The notes beneath the pieces were generated by a model. The model worked only from the letters and a program-made list of their open reading frames with translations, searched no databases and had not been told where the DNA came from. Shown in pieces: positions 15,187 through 53,137 of a DNA stretch of 64,000 bases (its first letter is position 1; each line of letters starts with the position of its first letter). Both the position numbers and the translations under genes were made by a program. The DNA is from a virus, in IMG/VR virus record IMGVR_UViG_3300017769_000001, positions 84,740-148,739 of that record; one strand, given 5' to 3'.

Positions 15187-15250
15187 AAACAAGCCATTTC
15201 CTACACAGGAATATATATCTGTGTAGGCGAGCGTGGTTAAACTTAAAGGT
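15187..15250 (+). repeat. dispersed palindromic element, copy 1
   Basis: CCTACACAG-GAATATATAT-CTGTGTAGG then GCGTGGTTAAACTTAAAGGT. Confidence 0.95.
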
Positions 15251-15334
15251 GCATGAGAATAAATTTCATTTGAGAATTGTTTCTAAGGATAATCCGGATC
15301 CTTCTGGAGCCCAGTAATAGCAAGGAATGTGGCG

Positions 15335-15409
15335 TTTCCTACACAGGAATATATATCTGTGTAGAGAGCGTGGTTAAACTTAAAGGTTGTTGAGATAGAT
15401 TCTCAAATG
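15335..15409 (+). repeat. dispersed palindromic element, copy 2
   Basis: Same core 138 bp downstream of copy 1, extended by TGTTGAGATAGATTCTCAAATG. Confidence 0.95.
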
Positions 15410-15449
15410 ACATCAGAACATCCGTTTAGCTTCGATGGTAGGTTTTTGC

Positions 15450-15455
15450 TAAATA
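15450..15455 (+). promoter_or_regulatory. gp55-dependent late promoter box TAAATA (representative)
   Basis: Same hexamer precedes late genes at + 10907, 17240, 19224, 20267, 29002, 35261, 37581, 38918, 46479, 48229, 52247 and - 618, 1970, 3310, 4213, 5074, 5609, 7183, 7732, 7824, 10930, 35239, 53142, 63501; matches the core of T4 TATAAATA. Confidence 0.85.
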
Positions 15456-15487
15456 AGATAAAACCGTAAGTACATGGGAGTTAACGA

Positions 15488-15703
15488 ATGAAAACTTATG
15501 TTAACAAGACACGTACCATGAAGCGTCTCGTTCTCGTAACTGACAAAAAGTCAGGGAAAACTGAGACTAAGTTTCTTGGTAAAGGTCAAGAAGTAACCAC
15601 TTCAAGCGAAGCATCTTTCGTTGAAGATGGAATCAAGATTCGGGAAACAGCGTCAAAGCAGCCTGCGTCTAAAAAAGCCGAAACCAAAGAAGATAAGGAG
15701 TAA
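15488..15703 (+). CDS. small basic late protein
   Basis: GGGAG RBS, late promoter, first gene of the sheath operon. Confidence 0.7.
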   Translation: MKTYVNKTRTMKRLVLVTDKKSGKTETKFLGKGQEVTTSSEASFVEDGIKIRETASKQPASKKAETKEDKE

Positions 15704-15709
15704 TAACCA

Positions 15710-17155
15710 ATGACTTTTCCTATTTCCGCTGGGGTTTACGGTCGTGAGATTCTCGGTGATGCTGTTGCAGCACCACAGATCGGCTTCACTGGTGCTGCTG
15801 TAATCAGTGCGCTTAAAGGGCCAGTCGAACCGACCCTTATTACCTCTGAACGCCAATTCTATGAGCTGTATGGCAAGCCTACAATGGATCGTCCATCAAT
15901 GCACTGTGTTGCTCGATTCCTGCGTCAAGGTAATGCGGCAACCGTTCGTCGGGTGATTGTTGATGCTACTGCTGCTTCTGGCGAGATCGCTGGTGCAGTG
16001 GATCCGTACATCACCATCGAAGCAGCCAACCCCGGTGCTTGGGGTAATGACCTGACCGTCACTTTCAATGAAAACGAAGACAACACTTCACTTTGGGATC
16101 TGACGGTGACTTATGATGGTGAGGTTGTTGAAACCTTCACTGTTTCTATGGTCGAAGGTGCTGTTGACGGATTCGGTCAGCCTCAGTACATCGAAGACCG
16201 CGTCAATGAGCGCAGCCAGTACGTTCGCATTACTGTGGACGAAACCGAAACAGCAACCATCACTGATGGTGATGACGTTGTTCTTGGTGCTGGTACAGAC
16301 GACAGCACACCGGTTGGTGACGCTGAAATCGTTCTGGCTCTTGAAGACTTCCGCAACACCGACGAAGTTGAAGCAAACTACATGATCAACGCAGGTTGGA
16401 TCTCAGCCGCTGTTCACGCAGCTATGGTTGATGTGATGGAAGACCGTAAAGACGGTATCGTCATCCTTGATATGCCAGACTCCAAAGTTGCAGCTGATCT
16501 GGTTACTTTCCGTAAAACAGAAAGCAACATCAACTCATCTTTCGCAGCGTACTACGCTGGTTGGGTTCGCATCATTGAAACCGAAACTGGCAAGGAAGTA
16601 TCTATCCCGGCATCTGGTGATGTAGCAGCGATCTTCTCTGCTTCTCAGCAAGGAACCGTTTGGGATGCTCCTGCTGGTCTTCGTCGCGGTGTGATCAACG
16701 GCATTCTGGGAACCAACAAGATCTGGTCTGAACTTGAGCGCGATGCCCTGTACAAGGCAGGTATCAACCCAATCCAGACATTCGCAGGTCAAGGTACTGT
16801 GATCTGGGGTCAGAAGACTGCATACGCAATTGCTTCTTCATTCGACCGCATCAACGTAAGATTCCTGCTGAACTATGTTCGCACAACTGCGATTGCTTCC
16901 CTGAAGCCATTCGTATTCCAAGCGAACACTGAGTTCACTCGAAACTCGATCTTCACTCTGCTTGACAACTTCATGGCAGGTGTTCAGGCGAATGATGGTG
17001 TGTACGGATACAAGATTGAAATCGGAACTGATCTGAACACTGCTCAGGTTATTTCGAACAACCAGCTGCTGGTTAACATTCTTGTTCAACCGACTCGCAC
17101 TGCCGAGTTCATCCGTGTTGACACAATCACAGTTCCACTTTCTCAGGATCTGTGA
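15710..17155 (+). CDS. gp18: tail sheath protein (gp18-like)
   Basis: SAGVYGRE, NPGAWGN, WDAPAGLRRG, INPI, WGQKT and DRINVRFL motifs. Confidence 0.95.
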   Translation: MTFPISAGVYGREILGDAVAAPQIGFTGAAVISALKGPVEPTLITSERQFYELYGKPTMDRPSMHCVARFLRQGNAATVRRVIVDATAASGEIAGAVDPYITIEAANPGAWGNDLTVTFNENEDNTSLWDLTVTYDGEVVETFTVSMVEGAVDGFGQPQYIEDRVNERSQYVRITVDETETATITDGDDVVLGAGTDDSTPVGDAEIVLALEDFRNTDEVEANYMINAGWISAAVHAAMVDVMEDRKDGIVILDMPDSKVAADLVTFRKTESNINSSFAAYYAGWVRIIETETGKEVSIPASGDVAAIFSASQQGTVWDAPAGLRRGVINGILGTNKIWSELERDALYKAGINPIQTFAGQGTVIWGQKTAYAIASSFDRINVRFLLNYVRTTAIASLKPFVFQANTEFTRNSIFTLLDNFMAGVQANDGVYGYKIEIGTDLNTAQVISNNQLLVNILVQPTRTAEFIRVDTITVPLSQDL

Positions 17156-17196
17156 TAACCGGTTAAAACGACAAGAAATTTCGCTACCAAATATTC

Positions 17197-17219
17197 AGCC
17201 CCTTTCGAGGGGCTTTTTT
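17197..17219 (+). terminator. intrinsic terminator after sheath
   Basis: AGCCCCT-TTCG-AGGGGCT-TTTTT. Confidence 0.85.
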
Positions 17220-17283
17220 ATTCTTGGTCAATAAGTTCCTAAATAATGGAACAGAAACATCCTTTGCAATGGAGAAATAAAAC

Positions 17284-17781
17284 ATGAGTATTGAACAAAC
17301 CCGCGCAATCGACCGTCCACAGAAGTCATACGAGTGGGAAATCGAAATCGTCGGCCCATCTACCGGCGGTCTTGAAGGTCTAAAGGCGTATGCCCAGACA
17401 GCGAACATTCCTGAAGAAAGCATTGAAGAAATCGTGATCAACCACAAGTCTGAACGTTCTGTTCATGCTGGCCGTGTTGCTTCTGCCCGAACTTCAACGA
17501 TTAACTTCATGGATGACGAAGCACTTACCGTATTCCGGTATATCCGTCAGTGGCAGGAAATCATCAAGAACTCGCAAACCGGTGGTGGTGTTCCTCGTTC
17601 ACTGTACGTTGCTGATATCATCGTCCGCCAGTTCAACTCTGACAGTCAGACTGTAAGCGCAGAGCATCGCCTGCGTGGTGCCTTCCCGACTTCTCGTGGG
17701 GAGATCAGCATGTCTTATGACGCGTCAGAAGTAATGAACTTCGATGTGACATTCAGTTACGAACGCCTTGATCTGGAATAA
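17284..17781 (+). CDS. gp19: tail tube protein (gp19-like)
   Basis: Follows sheath; ANIP, INFMDD, GAFP and FDVTFSY motifs; own late promoter. Confidence 0.88.
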   Translation: MSIEQTRAIDRPQKSYEWEIEIVGPSTGGLEGLKAYAQTANIPEESIEEIVINHKSERSVHAGRVASARTSTINFMDDEALTVFRYIRQWQEIIKNSQTGGGVPRSLYVADIIVRQFNSDSQTVSAEHRLRGAFPTSRGEISMSYDASEVMNFDVTFSYERLDLE

Positions 17782-17787
17782 TAACTG

Positions 17788-18474
17788 ATGATTAACACCC
17801 GACTGAAAGACTTGGTTCCAGCTGGCGGTGAGCTGTTAGGTGACATCATCACCAATCAGCTCGATCCCCAACTCGGATACATGTGGGAGGTTCGGGTAGA
17901 AAGTGCGGATGCTCCGAGAGACTACGAACGGAGCATTCAGCTTTTCGCGAGAAACGTGACTCTCCCCCAACGATCAGTTGAACCGATTCGCCGTGAGTAC
18001 ATGGGAGAGTCTGTTGTCCATGCCGGATACTCTTCGGATCCAAAACAGATTCGAGTGACTTTCTGGGATGACAAGCGACTTATCGGCTACCGATATTTCA
18101 ACGACTGGATAAACCAGTTGTCGGATCCGATGTATGGTCGTCAAGGACGCCAGACAATGACTCGGAAGAAAGTCGTAATGAAACTCAAAGACAGGACTGA
18201 CTTCTTCGTGGGTGTTGAGATTGAGTTCACTGGGGCATTCGTTTTCAACATTGGGGATGTTACTCTGAGTTACGATGAAAGTATTCCTTTCTTGTTTAAC
18301 GTCGGTATCCAATACGATGACATGTTGATGAACGGAACTCGTTACAGCATGGAAGAAATTAAGAATGCTTCTGGTAATTCTGATTTCTTTTCTAAGATAA
18401 ACAAACAGTTAAACGACAGAATCAGCGCAGCGAAAAACAAGGCATCCGATTTCATTGGCGGGTTAGGAGACTGA
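17788..18474 (+). CDS. tail tube paralog / tube initiator
   Basis: YMWEV, VTLP, VTFWDD and FNVGIQYD parallel the tube protein. Confidence 0.7.
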   Translation: MINTRLKDLVPAGGELLGDIITNQLDPQLGYMWEVRVESADAPRDYERSIQLFARNVTLPQRSVEPIRREYMGESVVHAGYSSDPKQIRVTFWDDKRLIGYRYFNDWINQLSDPMYGRQGRQTMTRKKVVMKLKDRTDFFVGVEIEFTGAFVFNIGDVTLSYDESIPFLFNVGIQYDDMLMNGTRYSMEEIKNASGNSDFFSKINKQLNDRISAAKNKASDFIGGLGD

Positions 18475-18475
18475 A

Positions 18476-19219
18476 TTGAGCTACGAACAATTTGAAACGT
18501 ATGAGAAGAATCTACACAAGCGCAGGGTTTCAGAACCTGCTCGCGCTTATCTGTGGGCGGTCGAACTTCCTGACCTGACTGTCGATCCTTCTAACGGGTC
18601 AAAGTCTGAAAGCTTCTCTAAAGCATCCTCGGATCTAAAAAGCAGATTCCTCCCCGTTGATATGCAGTTGGTGAATACGCTTGTGACATCAATCACCACG
18701 CCGTTCTTCACATTTGATACTGACAAGGTAACGAGTGGTAGTACGTTCTGGTACAAAGCCACACATAACGACATTTCAAACATCTCCATGACTCTCGAAG
18801 AGCAGGAGAATGGTGTTGTCTGGAATTACATCAACAACTGGAAGAATCTGATGCTTGCTTCAAACGGCGGACAAAACCCTCCGGCGTTCTACAAGCGAGA
18901 TATTACTTTTCTTCGTCTCGACCTGATGAAGATGCAGTTTCAAAAATTTGTTTACAGCAACTATTTTATCAGTGAAGTATCTCAGATCACAAATGACTAT
19001 ACATCAAATGCAGCAGTGCAGTATAATCTGACGTTTACTGGTGATAGTCTACTTCCGGTATATACCCTTGAAGGTGCTGCGCTTGAGGCTAGATTGGAGA
19101 GAGCATCTCAGCTTCTTGGCGGTGTCGAGATTCCTTACGATCCATTTGCGTACTCCGGAGTTCCTGCACCGGCAATTTCCAATTTACTTGGAACCATCGC
19201 CTCAAGGGCTCTGACTTAA
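18476..19219 (+). CDS. second tail tube paralog / baseplate-tube junction
   Basis: PARAYLWAVE, YINNWKN and YNLTFTGD; tube-like pattern; TTG start. Confidence 0.6.
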   Translation: MSYEQFETYEKNLHKRRVSEPARAYLWAVELPDLTVDPSNGSKSESFSKASSDLKSRFLPVDMQLVNTLVTSITTPFFTFDTDKVTSGSTFWYKATHNDISNISMTLEEQENGVVWNYINNWKNLMLASNGGQNPPAFYKRDITFLRLDLMKMQFQKFVYSNYFISEVSQITNDYTSNAAVQYNLTFTGDSLLPVYTLEGAALEARLERASQLLGGVEIPYDPFAYSGVPAPAISNLLGTIASRALT

Positions 19220-19253
19220 CGCGTAAATAGTAATATCAAAAAGGAGCGGAACA

Positions 19254-20117
19254 ATGGGAAACCCTACCCCTGATAAGATGTTCATGGATAATCCCCCTGA
19301 ACAGCCAAAAGAAAAAGTCGACCTATCACCAAAGGTATATGAGCCAGTCGAACAACCAATTGATGCACACGTGGATTCCCCCGTTGGCAACGTTGTAGAT
19401 CTTCCTTCAAAGGGTCTGCTTGGTTACCCGGCTTCGATCACCCACCGTGAGATTATGGCTGGCGACGAAGAGATTCTGAAATCTTCGACGAACAAAAACT
19501 TCAGTCGAACCGTCAACAAAGTTCTGAAGTCCATCTGCAACAACGCAGAATTCTTCGATGACATGTATGTTGGCGACCGGGATTATGTGATGATCCATAT
19601 CTGGGCAAACACATACGACTCTGAGAAAGAGTTTGAAGTGAAGTGTCGCCACTGCCAACACAAAGACGACATGAAGATCGATATCTTCAGATTGGATTCA
19701 ATCGACCCGAAAGATAACATGCCGTCAAGACTTCCGATGCGAGTATCAAAAACCGGTGACACAATCAAACTTCGATTGGTTACTGTTCGCGATGACAACA
19801 ACGCAGAAGAGTACATGGCGAAGAACCCGAACGCCGAAGTTTCTACGGAGACCCTGCACTACGCTCTGGCGATTGAGTTTGGGCGTCCGATGAGCATTGC
19901 TGAACGGATTCAATATGTCCATGAGAACATCACGGCGAAAGAACTGGCGACGATTCGGGAATTCCATCGTCATTTCAGCTTTGGTCTGGATACAAGCTTT
20001 GAACATACGTGCTCAGAGTGTCAGGGGGTCACTCGTGGAAATATTCCCTTTCTCCCCGAGGACATTATCAATCCTCAAGTACGAACAGATCTTGAGCAGC
20101 TACTACGATCTCAGTAA
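19254..20117 (+). CDS. gp26: baseplate hub / tail assembly chaperone (gp26-like)
   Basis: LPSKG, DEEIL, GDRDY, CRHC and CSEC zinc motifs. Confidence 0.8.
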   Translation: MGNPTPDKMFMDNPPEQPKEKVDLSPKVYEPVEQPIDAHVDSPVGNVVDLPSKGLLGYPASITHREIMAGDEEILKSSTNKNFSRTVNKVLKSICNNAEFFDDMYVGDRDYVMIHIWANTYDSEKEFEVKCRHCQHKDDMKIDIFRLDSIDPKDNMPSRLPMRVSKTGDTIKLRLVTVRDDNNAEEYMAKNPNAEVSTETLHYALAIEFGRPMSIAERIQYVHENITAKELATIREFHRHFSFGLDTSFEHTCSECQGVTRGNIPFLPEDIINPQVRTDLEQLLRSQ

Positions 20118-20250
20118 GGTTCTTGGCGGGGATCCTGTGAGCTATAGACAAATGCCTATGGCTCATATGATTTACTTTAACCGAAGGTTGAGTAAAGATA
20201 TCAAAGATAAAGATCCGTTTATCTATCCACACCCTCCGATATCCCTCTGA
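20050..20250 (+). CDS. gp51-like / chaperone extension in the +1 frame
   Basis: YYDLSKVLG...YRQMPMAHMIYFNRRL resembles small hub-assembly proteins; no SD-supported start, so the 5' boundary is uncertain. Confidence 0.5.
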   Translation, partial: FSPRTLSILKYEQILSSYYDLSKVLGGDPVSYRQMPMAHMIYFNRRLSKDIKDKDPFIYPHPPISL

Positions 20251-20256
20251 CTGACA

Positions 20257-20309
20257 TGGCAAGCCCTAAATAACCTCATATCTACAAAAGGTTTATTTGG
20301 AGCTTGCCA
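20257..20309 (+). promoter_or_regulatory. RBS-sequestering hairpin containing a late promoter
   Basis: TGGCAAGC-CCTAAATAACCT pairs with AGGTTTATTTGGA-GCTTGCCA, covering GGAG just before ATG 20310. Confidence 0.75.
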
Positions 20310-22577
20310 ATGTCTAATCGCAACTACCGTCCAATCGAAAGTATCAGACTTGAAGCTGAACTGTCACTAGCAGATTTTCTTTTCGATCAAGAAATTATTT
20401 CAGAAAGTGCCTATGCAATTGAGTACATGGGAACCAAAACTTTCGACCTGATGGAGTCTGCGTCTCGAAGCAATTCTCCCGGTTACTACTACGGAAAGGG
20501 AAAGGACGCAATTTACTATGTTGATTTCAGAAACATCTGGAACAACGTAAAAGACTATCCGTCAACAGAAGACGTTTATCGAGTATTTCACCCATCTGTC
20601 CAAAACGTAGAGGCGAATACAGCCACTACATGGTCGTCAAGGGTTCTTAACAAGTTTCTGGGCGGAAATAAAGGCGATCCCGGAGTACCGGAGGCTCGAA
20701 CTGAACTCGTCGCTAAGACGACCAGAGAGCGCACAGATCTCGAAAAGAAAATCCGTGCTGGTGAAGCAGAAGAGCTTGCCGATGACTTTGGCGAATATTC
20801 AATTGACGGTGGGTATCAGCGAAAGTCGTCTCGTTCTGGAAACATTGAACGAGCATCTACCCTGTTCCCCGGTGAGCTTTACAGCGACCAGTCTCGGATT
20901 CCGAAGCGTCGTTGGGGTTCATGGTGGAAGCGGTTCCTGAGAGCAAGAACCAGCGTAGCAGACCCAGAAAGCGGATTGCTGGCTATGCGCAAATGGTCGA
21001 AGCACTTCATTATGGGGTATCAGATCACTCCGAATCTTTTATTCGAAATCTGGTACAACAACATGGACAGTACATTCAGCGTCCATGACAAATACGGGAA
21101 CGTGGTTCAGCGTGGCGACAGTATTCCTTTGATTCGCGATGCTCTTAACGTTCTGTTCCATAATGTGGCAGATGCAAGTCCCAAAGACGCAGAAATCCTC
21201 AACATGAGAACTCCGAGCCTGCGTCGTGTGAATCAGGACATTGAAGCAGCACTGTCTGGCAGCGTTGATTCCGCACGGTCATACGCGGAACGTGTTCGTG
21301 ATCGTAAAGAAAAGACAATCCAACAACAGGAAGCTGAACGCAAACGTCGTCAGGAAAAGGAAGAGCGCGGTATTGAGCTTGGTGCTGACATCCGAGGCGA
21401 AGAAACTCGCAAATCTGAAGAAGAGACAGTTCAAAGTTTCCGTGACCGCGTGAAGAACGCTGTGAAAGACAAAGCGAAAGAAGCTGCAAAACAGGCTGCT
21501 GACAACTATAAGCAATCTACTCAATCTGGTGTTGCTTCTCCTTCCTATGCGAAGAACACAAAGCAGACAGATGATGTTTCTGATGAAGCTGCTCGTCGCC
21601 GTGAGGCTCGTCAGGCAGAAGCCATGCGTCGTGAAGAAACACGTGATGCTGAACGCAAGCGTAAGATGGAGACCGAAAAACTGAAAGCCCAGAGTGAGCT
21701 TGCAGCGAAAATCGACGATCTGTCTCAAGAGCTTGAAGACATGCGTTCTGATCCTGCTTACTTCGACGATGAAGCTACTCGTCAGGAAGAGATCAGAAAG
21801 GCTGAACAGGAACTTGCTGATGTCCAGAAAGCTGTTGCTGAATATGAAGACGACGATTTCGATTCTCGTCTGAAGGCCGAGTTTGAAAAGCTGAACAAAA
21901 AGATCGAAGCAAGTAACAAGCGTCGTGAGAAAAAGAAATCAGATGATTCACCTTCACTGGATGACTATGTGAACTCCGGGAAGAACAAGAAAAAGAAATC
22001 TGTGAATGAGTCTGCGATTGATGACCTCCTTGGCGGTCAAGCCGACAATGATGCTGAGTTCGATCTTCAGGATTACGATATGAATCCTCTGTACCGTCCA
22101 GAGGTTAATCGAGAAGTCGAACAAACCAGACAGAAGGCTGAGAACAGTCCGTTCACAAAGCAGCTGATCAATAGCATGTTCTTGGAAGGGTTCGTTCAGG
22201 TATACGATCAGACTCGTGTGAAAGACAACCGTACGTTCATTCGTCGTATTTTCGACCGACTGAAGATCTTCCGTGGAAGGGTTGAACCTATCGCACTCCC
22301 GTCTCGAATCGTTTCCAGCTACATGAAAGTGAAAGGATTTTTTGCTGGGGCGCAGGCGCGTGCGGATTTCATCATCGGCTACACCATAAATGATGTTGCC
22401 AACTTTGAGATCTGGTATGTGCAGGAGATCAGCGCGGATGGAACCCAGCAGTATGCGAGTTTCTATCTGTATGATGTCACTGCAATGAAAATCATTCAGA
22501 AGAACATCCCGCATTACAGAAACGCAGTTCAACTTCTGATCCTGAAGATCGGATCTGAGGATACAAAGGGAGCTTAA
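20310..22577 (+). CDS. large late protein with duplicated globular domain and central coiled coil (putative virion/internal protein)
   Basis: FIMGY...FEIWY...IP..R.A motif occurs twice around a charged coiled coil; own late promoter. Confidence 0.65.
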   Translation: MSNRNYRPIESIRLEAELSLADFLFDQEIISESAYAIEYMGTKTFDLMESASRSNSPGYYYGKGKDAIYYVDFRNIWNNVKDYPSTEDVYRVFHPSVQNVEANTATTWSSRVLNKFLGGNKGDPGVPEARTELVAKTTRERTDLEKKIRAGEAEELADDFGEYSIDGGYQRKSSRSGNIERASTLFPGELYSDQSRIPKRRWGSWWKRFLRARTSVADPESGLLAMRKWSKHFIMGYQITPNLLFEIWYNNMDSTFSVHDKYGNVVQRGDSIPLIRDALNVLFHNVADASPKDAEILNMRTPSLRRVNQDIEAALSGSVDSARSYAERVRDRKEKTIQQQEAERKRRQEKEERGIELGADIRGEETRKSEEETVQSFRDRVKNAVKDKAKEAAKQAADNYKQSTQSGVASPSYAKNTKQTDDVSDEAARRREARQAEAMRREETRDAERKRKMETEKLKAQSELAAKIDDLSQELEDMRSDPAYFDDEATRQEEIRKAEQELADVQKAVAEYEDDDFDSRLKAEFEKLNKKIEASNKRREKKKSDDSPSLDDYVNSGKNKKKKSVNESAIDDLLGGQADNDAEFDLQDYDMNPLYRPEVNREVEQTRQKAENSPFTKQLINSMFLEGFVQVYDQTRVKDNRTFIRRIFDRLKIFRGRVEPIALPSRIVSSYMKVKGFFAGAQARADFIIGYTINDVANFEIWYVQEISADGTQQYASFYLYDVTAMKIIQKNIPHYRNAVQLLILKIGSEDTKGA

Positions 22578-22580
22578 TAG

Positions 22581-28015: not shown

Positions 28016-28017
28016 TT

Positions 28018-28985: not shown

Positions 28986-28992
28986 TCCCTAT

Positions 28993-29032
28993 AGACCTTC
29001 CTAAATAATCACCAAGAATTAACGGAAGGTCT
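28993..29032 (+). promoter_or_regulatory. RBS-sequestering hairpin enclosing a late promoter
   Basis: AGACCTTCC / GGAAGGTCT perfect 9-bp stem, TAAATA at 29002, ATG at 29034. Confidence 0.75.
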
Positions 29033-29033
29033 C

Positions 29034-41490: not shown

Positions 41491-41491
41491 A

Positions 41492-43116: not shown

Positions 43117-43126
43117 GAGAGTGTTA

Positions 43127-44709: not shown

Positions 44710-44710
44710 T

Positions 44711-44736
44711 AAACCCCCGCTTCGGCGGGGTTTTTT
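44711..44736 (+). terminator. intrinsic terminator, probably bidirectional
   Basis: CCCCGC-TTCG-GCGGGG-TTTTTT between convergent genes. Confidence 0.85.
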
Positions 44737-45010
44737 ATAAAACTTCCAACTCAAGAGCCGTCTGAAATTCAACTATTTTACGTTGGTCTCCTTTAAACGT
44801 TGTCTGGCTCATGTAATCACTCCAGTGGTAGAAACCCCCGTTCGGAATATACGATTTAATGATCTCAGACTCTCCCCCACACCCATAACAAATGTCAGGA
44901 TCCCCCATCAGACTTTTGCGAGATAAATCAATGAGCCACCCGCAATGTTTACATTCCACACAGTAGACGTATCTCACAGGCTTTGTACGATTGTAAGCCA
45001 ATTCCGCCAC
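44735..45010 (-). CDS. small Zn-ribbon protein 6
   Basis: CKHCGW...CYGC. Confidence 0.7.
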   Translation of the reverse strand: MAELAYNRTKPVRYVYCVECKHCGWLIDLSRKSLMGDPDICYGCGGESEIIKSYIPNGGFYHWSDYMSQTTFKGDQRKIVEFQTALELEVL

Positions 45011-45306
45011 AATTCAAGCTTCCTTATCAGATGGTGTGCGTAAGAGTCTTCGTTGTTGGATATTAAGACTTCGTTGTGATGAATCCAATCAGATTGATCT
45101 GTGACTCTCTCAAAATCATGAGAATTAGTTCTTTCTCTCATGATTGATGAAGCATTCCCGCACATCATACATTCGACCTTTCCATCGGTCAACTCCCCCA
45201 TCACAGGCGTCTTCCACCCACAACGACAACACGTAATATGTCTGAAATTCCAAACATACCAATCATTAATCTCCATGTGCTCAAGAAACAAAGAAGCATT
45301 ATTCAT
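44974..45306 (-). CDS. small Zn-ribbon protein 5
   Basis: CCRCGWKTP...CMMC. Confidence 0.7.
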   Translation of the reverse strand: MNNASLFLEHMEINDWYVWNFRHITCCRCGWKTPVMGELTDGKVECMMCGNASSIMRERTNSHDFERVTDQSDWIHHNEVLISNNEDSYAHHLIRKLELWRNWLTIVQSL

Positions 45307-45542
45307 AGCAACATATCCAAAACTTTTTCTTCGATGATATCCATTATCTTTTCCTCATCCATGCCGACCGATTTCATACTGACGTAGAACATCCCCTGAT
45401 ATATCAGGTCATCTTCGGTCAGCGGAGACCCGTTCTGTGATTCGGTTATTCCGTGAAATGGGGTAGCACTACAACCAAAGCACCGTGGGTGCTTTCCGGA
45501 TGGCTGAACCCAGTCACATTGAGCACATCTTAGAAGAGCCAT
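45303..45542 (-). CDS. small Zn-ribbon protein 4
   Basis: CAQCDWVQP...CFGC; GAGG RBS. Confidence 0.7.
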   Translation of the reverse strand: MALLRCAQCDWVQPSGKHPRCFGCSATPFHGITESQNGSPLTEDDLIYQGMFYVSMKSVGMDEEKIMDIIEEKVLDMLL

Positions 45543-45551
45543 AAACTATCC

Positions 45552-45818
45552 TCAAAATAGCCAGAGTGAAATTTTTTCGTCCCAGTTTATACTTTTGAGA
45601 TACTCGTCGGGATCGGAAACAGACCCCAGATCTCTCCATAAAGGCTGTCTTCTTATATGCCTTTCCATATACGAGAATGATGGAGCGATATATCCACACA
45701 ACTGACACCCCGGACACGCACCAGTGAACATAGGATCTTTAGGGATTATGAACGCACAATTAATACATTTCACACATTCGTATAGATCATCACTTATGTC
45801 TTCCACTGTCACCTCCAA
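45552..45818 (-). CDS. small Zn-ribbon protein 3
   Basis: CINCAFIIP...CPGC; ends DEYLKSINWDEKISLWLF. Confidence 0.75.
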   Translation of the reverse strand: MEVTVEDISDDLYECVKCINCAFIIPKDPMFTGACPGCQLCGYIAPSFSYMERHIRRQPLWRDLGSVSDPDEYLKSINWDEKISLWLF

Positions 45819-45840
45819 CCCCCACTTTTCTTAAAGACTA

Positions 45841-46089
45841 TCACAAATGCAACCAAAGCGAAACTTTCTCGTCCCAGTTTATACTTTTGAGGTACTCATC
45901 ATCACCCCCAAGTCTCCGTGCTCTCCAGAACAGCTGGTATCGAATGTACCTTTCAGTGCTATCAGTCCGCATAACCAATAATGGTCTATCGCAACCCGGA
46001 CAATCATCAAACATTTCATGAACAGGGACTAAAAACGCGCAGTTAAGGCATTTCATACACGCGTACTGTTTGCCACTATCCGGTTCCAT
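45841..46089 (-). CDS. small Zn-ribbon protein 2
   Basis: CLNCAFLVP...CPGC; ends DEYLKSINWDEKVSLWLHL. Confidence 0.75.
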   Translation of the reverse strand: MEPDSGKQYACMKCLNCAFLVPVHEMFDDCPGCDRPLLVMRTDSTERYIRYQLFWRARRLGGDDEYLKSINWDEKVSLWLHL

Positions 46090-46137
46090 TCCTATACCTC
46101 AAATCAATATTTTAACGAGACTATCCTACATCCCCAA

Positions 46138-46461
46138 TCATAAATCCACCAACGCCACCCAAGCCTCGAATTCCTTTATTTTGGCTTCAAGGTGTTCTCT
46201 CGTAACTCTGCCTTCAAAGTGTTTGACGGTGTTCTCAACCCAGTCTTTGCTGAAGTGATGAACCTGAAATGAGTAATGCTCAATGTCGTCGAATATGACA
46301 CTGCCAATTGACGTATCATCACAACCACAAACATCACAGTAATCCGGGTTTGGTTTTAGATCTATAGGATCCCTCCACCCACAAAGCGGACAATGGATGA
46401 AATAGAATTGATATTCGCTGCCCTCGTGATCACGGGCTTTCGATTTTTTCATCATTACCAT
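46138..46461 (-). CDS. small Zn-ribbon protein 1
   Basis: CPLCGWRDP...CDVC; GAGGT RBS. Confidence 0.7.
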   Translation of the reverse strand: MVMMKKSKARDHEGSEYQFYFIHCPLCGWRDPIDLKPNPDYCDVCGCDDTSIGSVIFDDIEHYSFQVHHFSKDWVENTVKHFEGRVTREHLEAKIKEFEAWVALVDL

Positions 46462-46517
46462 CTACCTCAAACATCCGCTAAATAAAGAAAAACCAAACTC
46501 ACTAAGGAGTCTAACAC

Positions 46518-46856
46518 ATGGCACTAACAGAAACAACTCGCGATGTTAAAGGTAAAACCCTGACTTTCATCGAAACTGACGCAGCTGGTAACGGCATCTA
46601 CAAAGAAGGACTGTCGGATTACGATTACAACATTTTCGTAACCGTTGACGCTGATGGCACTGGCGCTACCCTGAAAGACAAGATGGATGCGTACACCCTG
46701 AAGAACGGACGTACTGCTACCGAAGTTTACGGTTCTCTTATCGTTGACATCGACGCATATGCTGCTCTGGCTCTGAAGAAGTACTTCGAACAGAATGAAG
46801 CAGAATCTCTGATTGATCATGAAAACCGCATCGCAACTCTTGAAGCTGCTCCGTAA
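46518..46856 (+). CDS. small late structural protein (candidate decoration protein)
   Basis: Late promoter, TAAGGAG RBS, terminator-like hairpin over the stop codon; homologous to the C-terminus of 49569-51107. Confidence 0.7.
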   Translation: MALTETTRDVKGKTLTFIETDAAGNGIYKEGLSDYDYNIFVTVDADGTGATLKDKMDAYTLKNGRTATEVYGSLIVDIDAYAALALKKYFEQNEAESLIDHENRIATLEAAP

Positions 46857-46941
46857 GGGCAGCTTTTCTATTACTGATTGACATCAGTGAAGTTGTGCAG
46901 TCTCTCTGATGTTCCGATAAACGTATCATGAAGGAAACGAT

Positions 46942-48231
46942 ATGGCGAGTACATCAGAGAGCCCACAAAGCATAACTCAGAATTACACGATTCCTGTTAT
47001 AAAACAAGAATCACTTTCTATCACCGGAGATCGTACTCACGGCAGTCTTCTAACGGTGCAGGATCCTCAAAGCAGGTTCGGATCCCGTGAAACTCAACTA
47101 TTCCGGCACTGGCAAGTCGGTAGTGAGATATTGCTTAACGGAACGGCGTCATCTGCTGAGAACGGAGTCTCCGTTCCAGACACAGTTGAAGTCTGGAGTG
47201 GTATTTCTGACAATGTAGAAATCACCTCGGCAAACCTCAGACATGCGAGAATTGACCAACAATACCGTGCATTCGGTAAAGGCTCTCTGGTTAATTCTAA
47301 AGCATTCGATAATATTGGTGCTGGCGATAAATTCTATTTCGCAAAATGGGCAAATGCTGGTTGTAACTTCCAAAGAGCATACGTTCTCGGATTTTTAAAT
47401 CTAACTGGCACATTCAACACCAGTGCAGATCGTTCTCGCGGAGAACCTGTAACACTTTCCCTTGTTGGTGGTGGTACTAAGACTGGCTACATCACATCAA
47501 TCATCAATTCTGTTCTCACTCTGGAAATCGACGGTGGTTCTGGCGGGGCTGCGACTATCGAAGGTGCTACTGTAACAGGTGCCCAATCCGGAGCAACACT
47601 GGTTATCGACACATCGACAATTTACGGAAGTACAGCAGCAACCAAGATCGCCCGAATTTACAGTGGCGGTATTCCTAGTGGTCTTGGTATTAGTGTAGTG
47701 ACAAGTCACAACGGCGGTCTTATCGATGTTGATGAGTATGGAGATACTGGATACGTTGGATCGTCTGCAAACGACTACTCCAATCAGCTGTATTCCACAG
47801 ATCCCGGCAACTTCCACTTGTACGAACTTGAGATCGATTTCAGTGGCGCTACTGGATCTGTTCGACAAAGAATCGACAACAAGGTTGTTTATGAAGTGTC
47901 CGGATTGAGTAAGACATACCTATCCGCAGTGAAGGGGTTCTTCCTTTCGAATGTTGGGATGGATACATCGGGACTCCCTGTTGATGTTAATGATATCGGT
48001 TTGACTGAGTACTGGGGTGAAATAATCGCAGACAACTCATTGAAACGGTTGGTGATTGGCGACTCTAACACATTGGACACCTGCAATCACATCGAGATCC
48101 AAAAGCATACTTCTTGGGGTGAAGGAATCGTTCAATTCCAACTCAACCAAGGGTCGTTTTCTGATCTAACCGGGAAATATTTGTTCTTGGTTGATGCAGG
48201 TTTCAGCGAAGTATTTTCGGCAGCACTGTAA
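46942..48231 (+). CDS. beta-rich putative virion surface protein, paralog A
   Basis: N-terminus MASTSESPQSITQNYTIPV and C-terminal YWGEI block shared with the next gene. Confidence 0.65.
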   Translation: MASTSESPQSITQNYTIPVIKQESLSITGDRTHGSLLTVQDPQSRFGSRETQLFRHWQVGSEILLNGTASSAENGVSVPDTVEVWSGISDNVEITSANLRHARIDQQYRAFGKGSLVNSKAFDNIGAGDKFYFAKWANAGCNFQRAYVLGFLNLTGTFNTSADRSRGEPVTLSLVGGGTKTGYITSIINSVLTLEIDGGSGGAATIEGATVTGAQSGATLVIDTSTIYGSTAATKIARIYSGGIPSGLGISVVTSHNGGLIDVDEYGDTGYVGSSANDYSNQLYSTDPGNFHLYELEIDFSGATGSVRQRIDNKVVYEVSGLSKTYLSAVKGFFLSNVGMDTSGLPVDVNDIGLTEYWGEIIADNSLKRLVIGDSNTLDTCNHIEIQKHTSWGEGIVQFQLNQGSFSDLTGKYLFLVDAGFSEVFSAAL

Positions 48232-48255
48232 ATAGAATGAGAACTGGAAAATAAC

Positions 48256-49569
48256 ATGGCGAATACATCACAAAGTCCATTAAGCGTTACTCAGAATTAC
48301 ACCATCCCCGTTGTACTTGGCGATGGTCTCGGTATTCCGGTGATTAATAGCGCAGCAAGCAATGGCGATGGAACCATTACTCTGTCAGGAACGAATTTCG
48401 GAGTTAAGCCGCAAGCTGCACCGATTCTCTGGGCATTCGGTACTGACCGAAGAAACAATGGTGTTCCTCAACCTGCAATCGATTTCACCCCCGGTGTAGA
48501 CGTTAACGATCCGACTGTATGGTCGACTTACGTACACAACCCGGTAAAATTCTCCGATACAACCCGATATCCGGGACTTGGGGTTTCTTACTGGTCAGCT
48601 AATGGTGGTTCGTTGAGTAACCCGTTGGCGCATTTTGATGGCAATCCTTATCCGAAATACTCGGATGAAATTTACGCATCTGCTCGATTCAAGTTACTTA
48701 CAGACTGGCATAATGCTAGGGCAATTCGGGTATCAGGAATCACTGGAACGTTCGACCAAGGCCCAAGTAAGTATGAATATGGCGAAACTCTGACATTCAC
48801 TAACAATGGCGACACATGGTCAGCTCAACTTGTAGCTATAACCGGAGACGTTGCAACCATCGTTTCTGACAGTGGATTCGATTATGTGAATGCTACGGCT
48901 ACTGGCGACACGTCTGGGGCAACATTCACTTCAACAGAATATCTGGCTTCCTCTGGCGGATCCAAGTACTTCCGCATGTGGGCAGGCGGTGTTGCTGGGC
49001 CTTTCAACTCAATCACGACAAACCGTTTGATTGGTGGTTACAAGGATGAAAACGGGACGCTCATCGCATCGTACAAAAACGAAGATGGGTCTGACGATCT
49101 TGGGTATGGGACTCAGGATATGACGGCAGTTCCGGGATGGAGATTCGCGGAAGTTTATATCAACCAGAAAGGCAACCAGAGTTACCAGTACTTCGATATA
49201 GACAACCTCGGACGTCGGTACGTTCGAAATCTAACCATCCCCGAAGGACAAAAGTTTAATGATCGGGCGATGACACTGTCTCAGGTCGGTTATGACGCTG
49301 CCGGTGGAACACAGATAATCGACACTGCTTTCTACTGGGGTGAAATATATCTGGACAGTACGCCAAAACGCGTTGTTCTAAGCAACAAGCCTAACCTTGC
49401 GGATATAGGACAGGAACAGGAATTACAATTCTTGACCGCATGGACTCCCAATGGGATTACATTCGAGGAAAGAATTGGGGCACTACAGGGCATGGGGTCT
49501 GTTTATGCGTATGTGTTCACTGAAGAAGATAAAGCAAATGACGTTGGATTTTATATAGGAGACTACTAA
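48256..49569 (+). CDS. beta-rich putative virion surface protein, paralog B
   Basis: MANTSQSPLSVTQNYTIPV, IPT-like TITLSGTNFG, YWGEIYLD. Confidence 0.65.
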   Translation: MANTSQSPLSVTQNYTIPVVLGDGLGIPVINSAASNGDGTITLSGTNFGVKPQAAPILWAFGTDRRNNGVPQPAIDFTPGVDVNDPTVWSTYVHNPVKFSDTTRYPGLGVSYWSANGGSLSNPLAHFDGNPYPKYSDEIYASARFKLLTDWHNARAIRVSGITGTFDQGPSKYEYGETLTFTNNGDTWSAQLVAITGDVATIVSDSGFDYVNATATGDTSGATFTSTEYLASSGGSKYFRMWAGGVAGPFNSITTNRLIGGYKDENGTLIASYKNEDGSDDLGYGTQDMTAVPGWRFAEVYINQKGNQSYQYFDIDNLGRRYVRNLTIPEGQKFNDRAMTLSQVGYDAAGGTQIIDTAFYWGEIYLDSTPKRVVLSNKPNLADIGQEQELQFLTAWTPNGITFEERIGALQGMGSVYAYVFTEEDKANDVGFYIGDY

Positions 49570-51107
49570 TGGGCGTTAGATTTGATGGGAATGGACACAT
49601 TGCGTTTGCGTCTCCATGGACACCCACTAATCTCGGAAACTTCGAGATTGAATTTGTTGTTACTGTGGCTGAAGTCGCCGGGCAGCACTTTCTAACAGGA
49701 CGCAGTAACAAAGTAACCCACCGGTTTTTCGGAAGTAACTTGTACTTTGGATGGGAAGTTGATGGTGGTGGCACTCGCTTCAAATATGCAACAGCAGCAA
49801 ATCCAGAAGCTGGGGTACAGGCACGTATCAAATATGTGTTCACATCTACAACCACTGTTGACGTATACAAAGACGGCACACTTGTCGAGGCAATAACAAT
49901 CGATCCGGCAGATGCCATCTTGATTTATGAATTGGATGCCATCGGATCGCGTGTAACCGGCACGTTGCTTGACGGTACAGTAATGCACGAGGTTCGTCTT
50001 ACCGACTTAGAAACTCCGGCAAATTCAAGTATCTATCTGTTGGATGAAGGGTCTGGTACTGTCGCAAACGACACTGGAGCACTAGGCAACAACGGTACGC
50101 TGACCGGGTTCACAGACGCAGAAGCCTCGTGGACTACACCACCGAAGCCTACGATCATGTCTGCATCTGATATCGCAGATGAAAGTCAGACTTCAAGTTT
50201 TGTTCTGAAATTCAACAGCGCAGATCCAACCGCCGTGACCGTAAACGGTGTTGCGGCAACGAATCTGCAAATGGTTTCTGAGGATGTTGGTGCCGGGACT
50301 CAAACTTGGAGTTACACACCGCCATTGATAGCGGACGATGCAACCGCAGACTTGGTTGTTACTGTTGACGGTGCTGATACAACTGCGTTTCAGATTGCGT
50401 ACGAGAACAGCTACGACCGCTCTCAAACAGCACATGGAGAACCGGCTGCAACTTCTGTTAACTTCGGAAACACGTATGCATCTGCAAATCCGTACGAGTG
50501 GAAAGTAATTACAGACACGAATCCGACAATTGCAATCGTCGATTGGAACCTGATGGAATCTTCAGATGGGATGAACCTCGGTATTGAGAACTTCATCACC
50601 ACGGTTGCAGAAGGAATCACATCTGCTGAGATCGGTGTTTTCATCCCTGAGACTGGTCAGACTGCGACGTTCACCAGAACATTCGAAATATCTACAGACG
50701 GAAGTATCTCTAACCCAGATCCCGAACCAGAACCAGAACCAGAACCGGATCCCGAACCAGAGCCAACGCTTCCGACTACTCTTGACGAAGTTCAGGTAAA
50801 CGTTAGAGGGCGTGTTCTGACCTTCATCGATATTGGTGATGGGTTTGGTATTCTGAAAGATGCCTTGTCTGCTGTTGATCTTCGAACAATGGAAGACGTC
50901 AGCGACAATGGTGTTGGGTCTACCCTGAAGAGCAAGATCGAAAACCACCGTATGGGCAACGGTCGGAAGGTAACAGACGTTTACAAAAATGCCATAGTAA
51001 ATATCAGTGGGTACGGTGATCAGATTGAGAAGAAGGTTCTGACTTCCAAGAAAGCAGAAACAATCTCAAGCCATGCATCACGTCTGGATTCACTCGAAAA
51101 TCCGTAA
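49569..51107 (+). CDS. LamG/Ig-like protein with Pro-Glu linker and C-terminal anchor domain
   Basis: VYKDG and YLLDEGSGTVAND..GNNGTL (LamG-type); PEPEPE linker; C-terminal domain matches 46518. Confidence 0.7.
   Translation: MGVRFDGNGHIAFASPWTPTNLGNFEIEFVVTVAEVAGQHFLTGRSNKVTHRFFGSNLYFGWEVDGGGTRFKYATAANPEAGVQARIKYVFTSTTTVDVYKDGTLVEAITIDPADAILIYELDAIGSRVTGTLLDGTVMHEVRLTDLETPANSSIYLLDEGSGTVANDTGALGNNGTLTGFTDAEASWTTPPKPTIMSASDIADESQTSSFVLKFNSADPTAVTVNGVAATNLQMVSEDVGAGTQTWSYTPPLIADDATADLVVTVDGADTTAFQIAYENSYDRSQTAHGEPAATSVNFGNTYASANPYEWKVITDTNPTIAIVDWNLMESSDGMNLGIENFITTVAEGITSAEIGVFIPETGQTATFTRTFEISTDGSISNPDPEPEPEPEPDPEPEPTLPTTLDEVQVNVRGRVLTFIDIGDGFGILKDALSAVDLRTMEDVSDNGVGSTLKSKIENHRMGNGRKVTDVYKNAIVNISGYGDQIEKKVLTSKKAETISSHASRLDSLENP
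50715..50765 (+). repeat. 6-bp-period repeat encoding a (PE/PD)n linker
   Basis: CCAGAA-type units. Confidence 0.85.
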
Positions 51108-51128
51108 GGATGATCGAAAGGAGGCAGC

Positions 51129-51350
51129 ATGAAATCAGAGTTAAAATTGACACTGATAATCATCGAGAAAGTCGTCAACATTATGACGTACTTTCTCGAT
51201 AAGAAAAGGCGAAAGGAGCGGGAAAATGAAACTCAGAAAATTCAGGAAGACCCTGTTGACTGGTTTAATGATCGTTACTCTAAGCGGGTGTCAGATGATG
51301 GGACTGACGAACCAACAAGCGATCCCGACGGTGACGAAACCAAGCGTTGA
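51129..51350 (+). CDS. putative i-spanin (Rz-like)
   Basis: GGAGG RBS; weakly hydrophobic N-terminus then charged helix; overlaps a lipoprotein gene next to the endolysin. Confidence 0.55.
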   Translation: MKSELKLTLIIIEKVVNIMTYFLDKKRRKERENETQKIQEDPVDWFNDRYSKRVSDDGTDEPTSDPDGDETKR

Positions 51351-51453
51351 TGCCTTCTACCAAGAAGGCAATGTTTGCTTTACTCGCGAAGACGCAGTCG
51401 TTTACTTTGACTACGTGTATGAACTGGAGACAGTTATGGAGGATCTAAAATGA
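51226..51453 (+). CDS. putative o-spanin lipoprotein (Rz1-like)
   Basis: AAGGAG RBS; basic N-terminus, hydrophobic stretch, lipobox LSGC; starts inside the upstream gene in the +1 frame. Confidence 0.7.
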   Translation: MKLRKFRKTLLTGLMIVTLSGCQMMGLTNQQAIPTVTKPSVDAFYQEGNVCFTREDAVVYFDYVYELETVMEDLK

Positions 51454-52253
51454 ATCGACTTCTCGTTGAAGGAATGCGAGGCAACGACGTCAAACAAGTC
51501 CAACAGCTTCTCATAAAACACAACTTACTCCCAGCCGGATCTGATGATGGGATCTTCGGAGACAATACGGAACGTGCCGTTAAAGCCTTCCAGAAGTCTT
51601 CTGGAGACGTTGTTGATGGTATTGTGGGAAAACGTACGTGGGACAGCTTAAACGAGCTTATAGGTGACGTATGGAAGCTTCAGGAAAGCGACTACATCAA
51701 AGCCGCAAAAGAACTGCAATGTGAAGTAGCAGCGATCAAAGCGGTCTCTGAAGTCGAGAGTGCTGGAGACGGATTCATCCAACCCCACATGCCGAAGATT
51801 CTCTTTGAACGACACTGGATGTACAGGAAGTTGAAGGAGTATGGACTTGGAACGGCGCTTGTCCTTGCAAAAGAACATCTCCCAAACATCGTTGCTACAA
51901 CGCCGGGTGGTTACAAAGGCGGCGTGCGTGAATGGGGTCGATACAACGAAGCGTATGGGCTGAACAAAGAATGCGCAATCGAGGCTACTTCTTGGGGTCG
52001 TTTTCAGATAATGGGATTCCATTATGAGGATCTCGGATATAAGTCACAGAAAGACTTCGCGGAACAAATGTCCACATCGGAGTCAGAACATCTTGAAGCA
52101 TTTGTGAAGTTCATCAAGAAAAATCCGTCTCTGCTTGACGCTATACGTAGCAAAGATTGGGCTAAGTTTGCCTACCATTACAACGGAAGATCGTACAGAA
52201 AAAACGAGTATGATGTCAGGATGGAAAAGGCATACAAACGGATCACTAAATAA
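51450..52253 (+). CDS. modular endolysin: PG-binding domain plus DUF3380-type N-acetylmuramidase
   Basis: DGIFG..TE.AVK.FQ...DGIVG..TW; AV.EVES.G, ILFERH, SWGRFQIMGF and YNG. Confidence 0.92.
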   Translation: MNRLLVEGMRGNDVKQVQQLLIKHNLLPAGSDDGIFGDNTERAVKAFQKSSGDVVDGIVGKRTWDSLNELIGDVWKLQESDYIKAAKELQCEVAAIKAVSEVESAGDGFIQPHMPKILFERHWMYRKLKEYGLGTALVLAKEHLPNIVATTPGGYKGGVREWGRYNEAYGLNKECAIEATSWGRFQIMGFHYEDLGYKSQKDFAEQMSTSESEHLEAFVKFIKKNPSLLDAIRSKDWAKFAYHYNGRSYRKNEYDVRMEKAYKRITK

Positions 52254-52284
52254 CCACACCACAGAAATACAGGAGGCACCTAAC

Positions 52285-52572
52285 ATGTGGCAGAAAATTC
52301 TAGTTAAAATTGGTTTCTTTCTTTTCGAATTCGGAATTCAGGTTCTGATCCAAACACTATTTGGGAAAGAGAATCGTCAACGTCTGGAAGCGGTGATCGA
52401 CGCGCTGTCTAAGGACGGAGAATTGACGGCCAAGCAGAAGTACAACCGTGCGAAGAAATTCATCGATGAGCTTGGTGGAGATCTGCCGGATACCATTAAA
52501 AACCTTGCCATTGAAGCAGTCGTTGCGAAGATCAATGACAAGTATGGTGAAGTGCTGAAGAAAGTCAAATAA
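52285..52572 (+). CDS. small late protein with hydrophobic N-terminus (holin candidate)
   Basis: Late promoter, AGGAGG RBS, one hydrophobic segment, directly after the endolysin. Confidence 0.45.
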   Translation: MWQKILVKIGFFLFEFGIQVLIQTLFGKENRQRLEAVIDALSKDGELTAKQKYNRAKKFIDELGGDLPDTIKNLAIEAVVAKINDKYGEVLKKVK

Positions 52573-52582
52573 AGCTAACTAA

Positions 52583-52618
52583 GAGGTGGAAGCAAGAGTT
52601 TCCCGCCTCCTTTCCTCT
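52583..52618. terminator. hairpin between convergent genes
   Basis: GAGGTGGAAGC-AAGA-GTTTCCCGCCTC followed by a pyrimidine run. Confidence 0.5.
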
Positions 52619-52623
52619 AGCTT

Positions 52624-53043
52624 CTAAGTCCCGTTAACGCGGGACTTTTTTTTGGCTCTTTGGGCAACAAGTTCATCGCGAGAGATTCTCTTTTGACCGC
52701 TGTTGCCTTCAGAATCGTCCGACGTACTTTCAATCGCCTTCGCGCCTTTCTGACGAGAACGAATCTCAGCATTCTTGTGCTTGATTTGAAGATCAGATTC
52801 CTTGTACATAGTATCTTTTGCAAGATCGAGGTACTGCTTCGCAAGCTCAAGCTGTGGGATTCTTTGCTCCGGCTCCAGTAGCTTAGACTCATTAACGAGT
52901 TCTTTATACTGCTCAAGGGCAAACAATACCACGTCCCTCATGGTAGGATCCTCTGGAATTTTCAGATCCATTCCAAATACCTTTTTCACTTCTTCTGACG
53001 CTTCAACACCCAGTGCGTCGTCCAATGGATGGCTCCCGCTCAT
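52624..53043 (-). CDS. probable terminase small subunit (gp16-like)
   Basis: Helical hairpin ALEQYKEL...LELAKQYL..A and C-terminal SRDEL; late promoter at 53142; GGAGG RBS. Confidence 0.55.
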   Translation of the reverse strand: MSGSHPLDDALGVEASEEVKKVFGMDLKIPEDPTMRDVVLFALEQYKELVNESKLLEPEQRIPQLELAKQYLDLAKDTMYKESDLQIKHKNAEIRSRQKGAKAIESTSDDSEGNSGQKRISRDELVAQRAKKKSRVNGT

Positions 53044-53051
53044 ACTTCCTC

Positions 53052-53137
53052 CATTTGAGAATCTATATCAACAACCTTTAAGTTTAACCACGCCCTACTA
53101 CACAGATATATATTCCTGTGTAGGAAATGGCTTGTTT
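53052..53137 (-). repeat. dispersed palindromic element, copy 3 (inverted)
   Basis: Reverse complement AAACAAGCCATTTCCTACACAGGAATATATATCTGTGTAGTAGGGCGTGGTTAAACTTAAAGGTTGTTGATATAGATTCTCAAATG. Confidence 0.95.

Follow-up and report, generated by a model that had tools for sequence, protein, structure and literature searches.

The stretch of DNA analysed here (the window) comprises the final 64 kb of a 148,739-bp viral record, IMG/VR IMGVR_UViG_3300017769_000001 (record positions 84,740 to 148,739), and window coordinates are used unless the genome is named. Its subject is a short palindromic element found in three copies at two divergent gene junctions. The record has a 123-bp terminal overlap at its end, which is taken to be a sign of a circular or permuted assembly. 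The phage is T4-like and encodes a gp55 late sigma factor, gp46/47, sheath, tube, T4-type portal, prohead protease, and phoH. At the left junction, the gp55 gene on the minus strand stands opposite an open reading frame (ORF) of 71 amino acids (aa) and the tail sheath gene on the plus strand, and this junction carries two direct copies of the element. At the right junction, a 139-aa ORF on the minus strand stands opposite phoH on the plus strand, and one inverted copy is located between them. The features of both junctions, including the Shine–Dalgarno sequence (SD) of the 139-aa gene, are as follows.

14395–15060, minus strand: gp55 late sigma factor gene (phrog_234, E 6e-26).
15087–15115, minus strand: sigma70-type promoter of gp55, TTGACC-17-TAGAAT; equivalents are readable in the relatives' contigs L037, L066, and L032.
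15185–15250, plus strand: copy 1 of the element, with left flank AAACAAGCCATTTC, core 15201–15226, linker GCGA, and box 15231–15250; no promoter lies ahead of it.
15310–15409, plus strand: copy 2, with a decayed late promoter CCCAGTAATAG (15310–15320), core 15339–15364, linker AGA, box 15368–15387, and right flank TGTTGAGATAGATTCTCAAATG.
15449–15455, plus strand: late promoter CTAAATA of the 71-aa/sheath operon, downstream of copy 2.
15488–17155, plus strand: 71-aa basic ORF and tail sheath gene.
52624–53043, minus strand: 139-aa ORF encoding a helical protein of an uncharacterised family.
53052–53152, minus strand: copy 3, with late promoter GTAAATA (53142–53148), core 53098–53123, linker TAGG, box 53074–53093, right flank, and SD, followed by the ATG at 53043.
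53178–53206, plus strand: sigma70-like candidate promoter of phoH, TTGACA-17-CATAAC, 55 nt from copy 3; it is weak, being read from the sequence and missed by the consensus scan.
53257–54003, plus strand: phoH (PF02562, E 3e-40).

Each copy contains a 26-nt core, CTACACAG-GAATATATAT-CTGTGTAG, built of 8-bp symmetric arms and an AT-rich 10-bp centre. The three cores agree with 0 mismatches, and none of 100 shuffles gave any match. After each core follows an identical 20-nt box, GCGTGGTTAAACTTAAAGGT, and between core and box only the linker of 3–4 nt varies. Pattern searches at up to three mismatches and a covariance model found no further copies in the whole 148,739-bp genome. The flanks of the copies are mosaic. 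Copies 1 and 3 align over 64 nt, 61 of them identical, beginning at AAACAAGCC; only the linker differs, and the left flank of copy 3 is that of copy 1. Between copies 2 and 3 the alignment extends over 102 columns, from CCCAGTAA(A)TA through CTCAAATG, the right flank of copy 3 being that of copy 2. A preliminary description of this DNA had reported the identical core and box, the variable linker, and the composite copy 3; all of this was reproduced, and the match between copies 2 and 3 proved longer than first noted. Upstream, copy 2 has the same sequence as copy 3, but the TAAATA core of its late promoter lacks one A (TAATAG). The mosaic flanks show that the copies have exchanged sequence, and copy 2 is paralogous to the copy-3 cassette as a whole. 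Copy 1 aligns through its right flank (15237–15281) with the sequence that follows the element in the relative L037, and copy 1 is thus the orthologue of the relatives' single element.

The 38 kb between the copies contain tail, baseplate, fibre, large terminase, and lysis genes. The portal, prohead protease, scaffold, and major capsid genes are on the minus strand to the left of gp55, outside the bracketed segment. The preliminary description spoke of the entire morphogenesis block as bracketed, which is overstated with respect to the head genes. The late promoter motif of the phage is [CG]TAAATA, with 37 occurrences in the genome, 28 of which lie at most 120 nt upstream of the start of an ORF on the same strand, usually at a distance of 28–54 nt. 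Copy 3 is placed between its late promoter and the SD and ATG of the 139-aa gene; the promoter-to-ATG distance of 105 nt makes this leader the longest of all, and the identity of copies 1 and 3 begins no more than 1 nt from the transcription start predicted at copy 3. The divergent geometry described earlier, with a sigma70-type promoter firing away on one side and late genes on the other, holds in outline at both junctions, with the reservation that the phoH promoter is only a weak candidate.

Several familiar identities of the element were considered and rejected. A sigma70 promoter hidden in the element was ruled out in both orientations, no conserved −35 being present in the relatives; a consensus scan gave a single weak reverse-strand match in copy 2 (TTAACC-18-TATATT, 9/12), whose −35 is, by eye, unconserved in L032, L037, and L066. 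The loop is not a late promoter, since GAATATA has two mismatches to [CG]TAAATA. An intrinsic terminator was ruled out as well: no terminator-like site occurs at any copy, and no T-run follows the stem on either strand. A MotA-type middle promoter was excluded because a genome search found no MotA DNA-binding domain (PF09158); T4-like phages that do not belong to the T-even group are not known to have MotA or AsiA. LexA, CRP, and ArgR boxes were rejected because the half-sites stand in the wrong relative order. Rfam 15 gave no match at the gathering score in the window.

Two observations concern transcription around the junctions. A perfect forward TTGACA (15083–15088) overlaps the −10 of the leftward gp55 promoter, and overlapping back-to-back promoters may exist at 15083–15115. 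A strong hairpin, AAGTCCCG-TTAA-CGCGGGACTT, followed by TTTTTT (52626–52647), stands at the meeting point of the plus-strand late block and the converging 139-aa gene and is probably the terminator of the plus-strand block.

No cultured phage is similar to this region at the DNA level; a blastn comparison of the left junction with a phage collection gave no match. Pattern scans of IMG/VR and the JGI metagenomes, in which the exact box, CTACACAG-N10-CTGTGTAG, ACACAGGWATATATATCTGTGT, and CWACNNAGNNNNATATATCTNNGTAG were among the patterns used, gave nothing or chance matches (11 + 28 loci, without any protein in common with this phage). Among related loci sought by gp55, only relatives with at most 34% identity were found, and searches with the 139-aa protein or its alignments returned nothing, or one locus without the element. 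Homologues of gp55 and sheath with 50–86% identity are present in Logan and ENA assemblies. Four of these contigs span the gp55|sheath spacer, and each has one element, 131–160 nt from the gp55 ATG:

L032: left arm CAACACAG, centre GTATATATAT, right arm CTGTGTAG.
L037: left arm CTACCAAG, centre TTAAATATAT, right arm CTTGGTAG.
L066: left arm GCACACAG, centre TTAAATATATA, right arm CTGTGTGC.
L067 (weaker): left arm TCACCAAG, centre AAACATGTGT, right arm CTTGGTTA.

The remainder of these spacers is unalignable. Covariation in the arms, which the preliminary description had proposed to look for in relatives, was counted on a hairpin-only alignment; a covariance-model alignment placed L066 in the wrong register. 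Paired cells make up 95% of the arms, and compensatory changes are present at four of the eight pairs, altered on both sides, while no pair is altered on one side only (no G-U type). The covariation score is 0.525 vs. 0.156 in shuffles, none of 500 shuffles reaches 0.525, and shifting the register by 1–3 columns lowers the score to 0.10 or less. By these comparisons, the symmetry of the palindrome is under selection.

The relatives' contigs that end at the two junctions are seven in number, six Logan k-mer contigs and one JGI contig. Three end 140–190 nt before gp55, three stop 54–57 nt short of the 139-aa homologue, and the last begins 203 nt upstream of the small ORF preceding sheath; L030 and L076, which come from one sample, stop on opposite sides of the spacer. 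Such breaks are the expected effect of repeats longer than the k-mer, and they indirectly indicate that the relatives, too, carry matched copies. A second family of small palindromes with variable spacing can also be noted near the element (TTCTCA-N2-TGAGAA, TGAGAA-N3-TTCTCA, and TGAGA-N5-TCTCA), at L031:85–125, L034:1–30, about 375–395 of L037, and 15392–15407 of the window. The closest relative (L068, sheath 86% identical) has an ORF at L068:3–392, directly upstream of sheath in the place of the window's 71-aa ORF; inspection by eye suggests a free-standing homing endonuclease with a NUMOD/GIY-YIG-like C-terminus.

A cultured relative, Alishewanella phage vB_AspM_Slicko01 (141,431 bp), was found through the 139-aa protein (32% identity) and sheath (31%), and tblastn confirmed its synteny with the window. 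It has a similar AT-centred palindrome, CTATATA-CAGATATATC-TATAT(AG/TA), with 7-bp arms and a 10-nt AT-rich centre. Exactly two copies are present in the Slicko01 genome at up to three mismatches, one in the gp55-like|sheath spacer and the other in the spacer between phoH and the 139-aa homologue WGH49654.1; they are mutually inverted and 43.7 kb apart, and the two spacers have 22 identical nt in common, CTATATACAGATATATCTATAT. The phoH and 139-aa genes are on swapped sides of the element relative to the window. Both elements are located about 100–130 nt upstream of late promoters, neither of them within a leader, and the two loci differ in how the element is oriented with respect to the adjacent late genes. 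Folded as single-stranded DNA, the Slicko01 hairpin has a free energy of −2.1 kcal/mol (z −0.4; all-A/T arms), whereas the window reaches −7.9, L037 −6.4, and L066 −9.2. Since the palindrome persists in Slicko01 without a stable hairpin, it is symmetry and not hairpin stability that is conserved. The varying orientation to late genes likewise disfavours a strand-specific RNA role. Elsewhere in Slicko01 (OQ508956.1, 97605–100100), the match to the large terminase is interrupted by about 1 kb within a single 853-aa open frame, which looks like an intein-type insertion.

The compensatory arm changes in relatives, together with the recurrence at the same two junctions in Slicko01, support the earlier proposal of a functional site, and we regard the element as a real cis-acting site. 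Four roles had been suggested for it: a replication origin or priming hairpin, an inversion site, an operator, and a packaging site. The operator fits best, as the symmetry of the half-sites is kept through evolution, Slicko01 included, and orientation to the neighbouring genes is not fixed; that a protein binds there is our inference. The reading that we tentatively prefer, and hold to be possible and somewhat short of probable, is that a symmetric protein binds the element as double-stranded DNA, at a place where sigma70 and late promoters stand back to back, and that gene conversion keeps the copies uniform. A dimeric or ring-shaped sequence-specific protein would read the 26-bp unit. The site occupies two control regions, in which a sigma70-type promoter (of gp55 or phoH) would stand back to back with a gp55-type late promoter (of the sheath operon or the 139-aa gene), and its occupancy would control or insulate both early/late junctions jointly. 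A copy-3-type cassette may have been duplicated into the left junction, and the phage's own recombination system would keep the copies identical through gene conversion, while the specificity of the binding protein would drift together with its sites. The copies are indeed identical within a genome and diverged between genomes, which is a pattern of concerted evolution. The identity over 64–102 nt, including the dead late promoter, is proposed to be a by-product of duplication and conversion; the PeSL cassettes of T4-type phages, described below, are known to recombine in a similar way. This genome also repeats promoter cassettes elsewhere, and short homology is sufficient for T4-type recombination (PMC2839356).

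A known arrangement of this kind is that of phi29 protein p4, whose sites are inverted repeats between the divergent early (A2b/A2c) and late (A3) promoters. Both cases have inverted repeats with a long spacer at a place where early and late promoters of a lytic phage diverge. However, the sequence and the phage family differ, and here no p4-like protein was identified, the promoter spacing is variable, and one copy is in a leader. Several observations weigh against a regulatory protein site. No binding protein was identified for the element, and there are only two loci per genome, a small number for a regulator. Relative to the gp55 start site, its position ranges from about −121 to −148, out of helical phase. 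Most relatives have a centre of 10 nt, but that of L066 measures 11 nt, or 9 nt if its arms are taken as 9 bp. Copy 3 is part of a transcribed leader and does not stand between promoters, and the compensatory arm changes are equally compatible with a nucleic-acid hairpin. The homology of the Slicko01 and window elements rests on position and architecture, the only alignable sequence being ATATATCT. In a third lineage (L084, a 99-kb fragment), the phoH|139aa arrangement is present, and no such palindrome occurs there.

Repeated copies with mosaic flanks may also be left by mobility or rearrangement. Cassettes named PeSL (promoter-early stem-loop) have been described in T4-type phages (Arbiol et al. 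2010, PMC2839356; Comeau et al. 2014, PMC4122927), and the element might be a mobile or selfish cassette like these, with repeats that persist by recombination and a function limited to the promoter and leader carried. The mosaic flanks, the dead promoter copy in copy 2, another triple promoter cassette at 76.5–79.8 kb of the genome, and the homing-endonuclease-like ORF in the same spacer of the closest relative speak for this. As in PeSL, a short repeated intergenic cassette in a T4-like genome places a stem-loop beside a promoter or leader and forms a homology patch for recombination, of which the mosaic flanks are the expected footprint. However, PeSLs combine a strong early promoter of the sigma70 type with a GC-rich terminator hairpin, and tens of copies surround ORFans in hyperplastic regions, whereas the element has neither a conserved sigma70 promoter nor a terminator and is present in two or three copies at core-gene junctions. 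Moreover, its palindrome itself is conserved across genomes with compensatory changes. The element thus fails the PeSL definition, and a near-constant distance from gp55 among phages with only 50–60% gp55 identity, along with compensatory arm changes, is not expected of a decaying cassette; we consider this explanation quite unlikely. The inversion candidate, in which inverted copies flip the 38-kb block and produce two genome isomers, found no support and seems highly improbable. It is true that the copies are inverted in both this phage and Slicko01 and, given their mosaic flanks, have exchanged sequence, and that T4-type recombination works on short homology (PMC2839356, citing Singer et al. 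1982), for which 64–102 nt of inverted homology suffice. Yet the six frames of the whole genome contain no match at E ≤ 1 to a serine (PF00239) or tyrosine (PF00589) recombinase, and a single adjacency is seen in junction contigs: gp55 adjoins the sheath operon in the window, the four spanning metagenomic contigs, and Slicko01, and the 139-aa gene adjoins a 120-aa gene (in L034 also the endolysin) in all three contigs showing it. Furthermore, a crossover within the core would part the 139-aa gene from its sole late promoter, and the Slicko01 copies have only 22–33 nt in common. In the invertible segments of Mu and P1 (Gin/gix and Cin/cix), 3–4 kb are flipped by a serine invertase encoded beside the segment. 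Inverted short sites flank tail-related genes there as well, but here the segment is 38–44 kb long, no invertase was found, and no second orientation was seen in the assembled contigs.

Readings in which the hairpin itself or a packaging protein matters can be weighed against the same comparisons. A 5′-leader hairpin of late transcripts, controlling their stability or translation, would agree with the position of copy 3, behind a consensus late promoter and ahead of the 139-aa gene's SD, where the identity with copy 1 begins within 1 nt of the predicted start, and with the folding of the forward-strand RNA (z −2.0 to −3.5, the stem being lengthened by G-U pairs). This holds only for copy 3, as the late promoter comes after the element in the four relatives and Slicko01 and also at copies 1 and 2, so that no known promoter transcribes the element there; the orientation to late genes is not conserved in Slicko01, the arms change without G-U intermediates, and there is no Rfam match. 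An RNA element is accordingly a doubtful explanation, with little probability. An origin of replication, or a priming hairpin that the phage Prim-Pol protein might read, could lie at the main strand switch. In its favour one can cite the cumulative GC-skew minimum, which falls near 100 kb in the genome, the location of copies 1 and 2 and of a divergence of genes, the AT-rich centre, and the clustering of rearrangements at the element; T4 origins coincide with recombination hotspots. However, the skew follows the coding strand locally, being flipped by minus-strand islands at about 118–120 kb and 130–132 kb, and is thus no independent evidence of an origin. A more canonical origin-like region is found 17 kb away (genome 82.1–82.5 kb), where three DnaA-box-like sites are accompanied by 12-nt iterons and an AT tract, while the palindrome has no iterons or extended unwinding element, and its Slicko01 version cannot form a stable hairpin. 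The MotA-dependent middle promoter of T4-type origins (oriF/oriG) is absent too, the genome having no PF09158. The origin candidate of the preliminary description is thereby weakened, and we think it rather unlikely.

The packaging candidate, which we rate as unlikely, makes the element a pac-like binding or pairing site of a gp16-like small terminase, namely the neighbouring 139-aa protein, whose rings would bind and perhaps join the copies. The 139-aa gene adjoins the element in both lineages despite the inverted local gene order, its product is predicted to have a helical hairpin and a basic C-terminal helix, the neighbourhood of the large terminase gene showed no alternative candidate for a small terminase, and the best-conserved motif of the family, LELAKQYLDLAKD, aligns with MDAAKIFLETAKN of T4 gp16 at the same position. 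However, hhalign of the family against T4 gp16 gave a probability of 5.8% with this one common motif, which is suggestive and not evidence; 68 family members gave no Pfam, PHROG, or PDB match, and Foldseek found nothing significant. Nor does a pac site require two or three inverted copies, and T4-type phages package by headful, for which a unique pac site is not needed. The 139-aa ORF, whose family has 105 clusters in a representative library of 1.8 billion proteins, was given as a probable small terminase in the preliminary description and is called here a putative one. It was ruled out as UvsY, the only weak UvsY-like match being a different ORF (56761–57219). A model of pac synapsis exists for T4 gp16 and the DNAs that carry its pac site (review PMC3012670). 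Both there and here a short repeat is tied to a small terminase gene (a putative one here), the element standing also beside sheath and tube genes, but the T4 site is inside gene 16, whereas the present copies are intergenic and inverted. An improbable extension is that the inverted palindromes form a pairing device, rings of the 139-aa gp16-like protein binding both and joining the ends of the tail-gene block. If so, it would be a natural counterpart of the T4 gp16 pac synapsis and would link packaging, or a check of concatemer maturity, to two fixed genome landmarks across an entire clade of T4-like phages.

Other repeats and composite genes were noted in the genome. About 5–8 kb before the window, a cassette of about 80 nt is present in three direct copies (genome 76560–76643, 78338–78413, and 79691–79772); on the minus strand it has a sigma70 promoter, TTGACT-17-TACAGT, an inverted repeat GGTGCCA-N12-TGGCACC around the −10, and then SD and ATG, and it is PeSL-like. 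At 82100–82480 of the genome, about 2.3 kb before the window, there is no ORF longer than 60 aa; three DnaA-box-like sites lie within 65 nt (82367, 82392, and 82421), together with a 12-nt direct repeat, TTCACACTACAC, three times, an inverted pair of IHF-like sites, and an AT-rich tract. Within the window, a 15-nt unit, TTGTCTTCGTCGTCC, is repeated five times in tandem at 5379–5454, inside a minus-strand ORF (5132–5584), and would encode an acidic peptide repeat. The ORF at 54572–56512 (646 aa) is UvsX-like in its C-terminal half; its first approximately 330 residues match mixed "PhoH", "ribonucleotide reductase", and "thymidylate synthase" PHROGs, a pattern that suggests an intein or inserted mobile domain.

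Returning to the tentatively preferred reading of a double-stranded DNA site for a symmetric protein, a short palindrome kept at the same two early/late junctions, despite sheath identity of about 30%, would offer a mutable handle on the organisation of the early-to-late switch. A cultured phage–host pair, Slicko01 and Alishewanella strain SMS8, carries the element, which makes it testable at the bench. The copies also present a clear case of concerted evolution and of cassette duplication between distant sites of a phage genome, and such repeats may be the reason why k-mer assemblies of these phages end at just these junctions.

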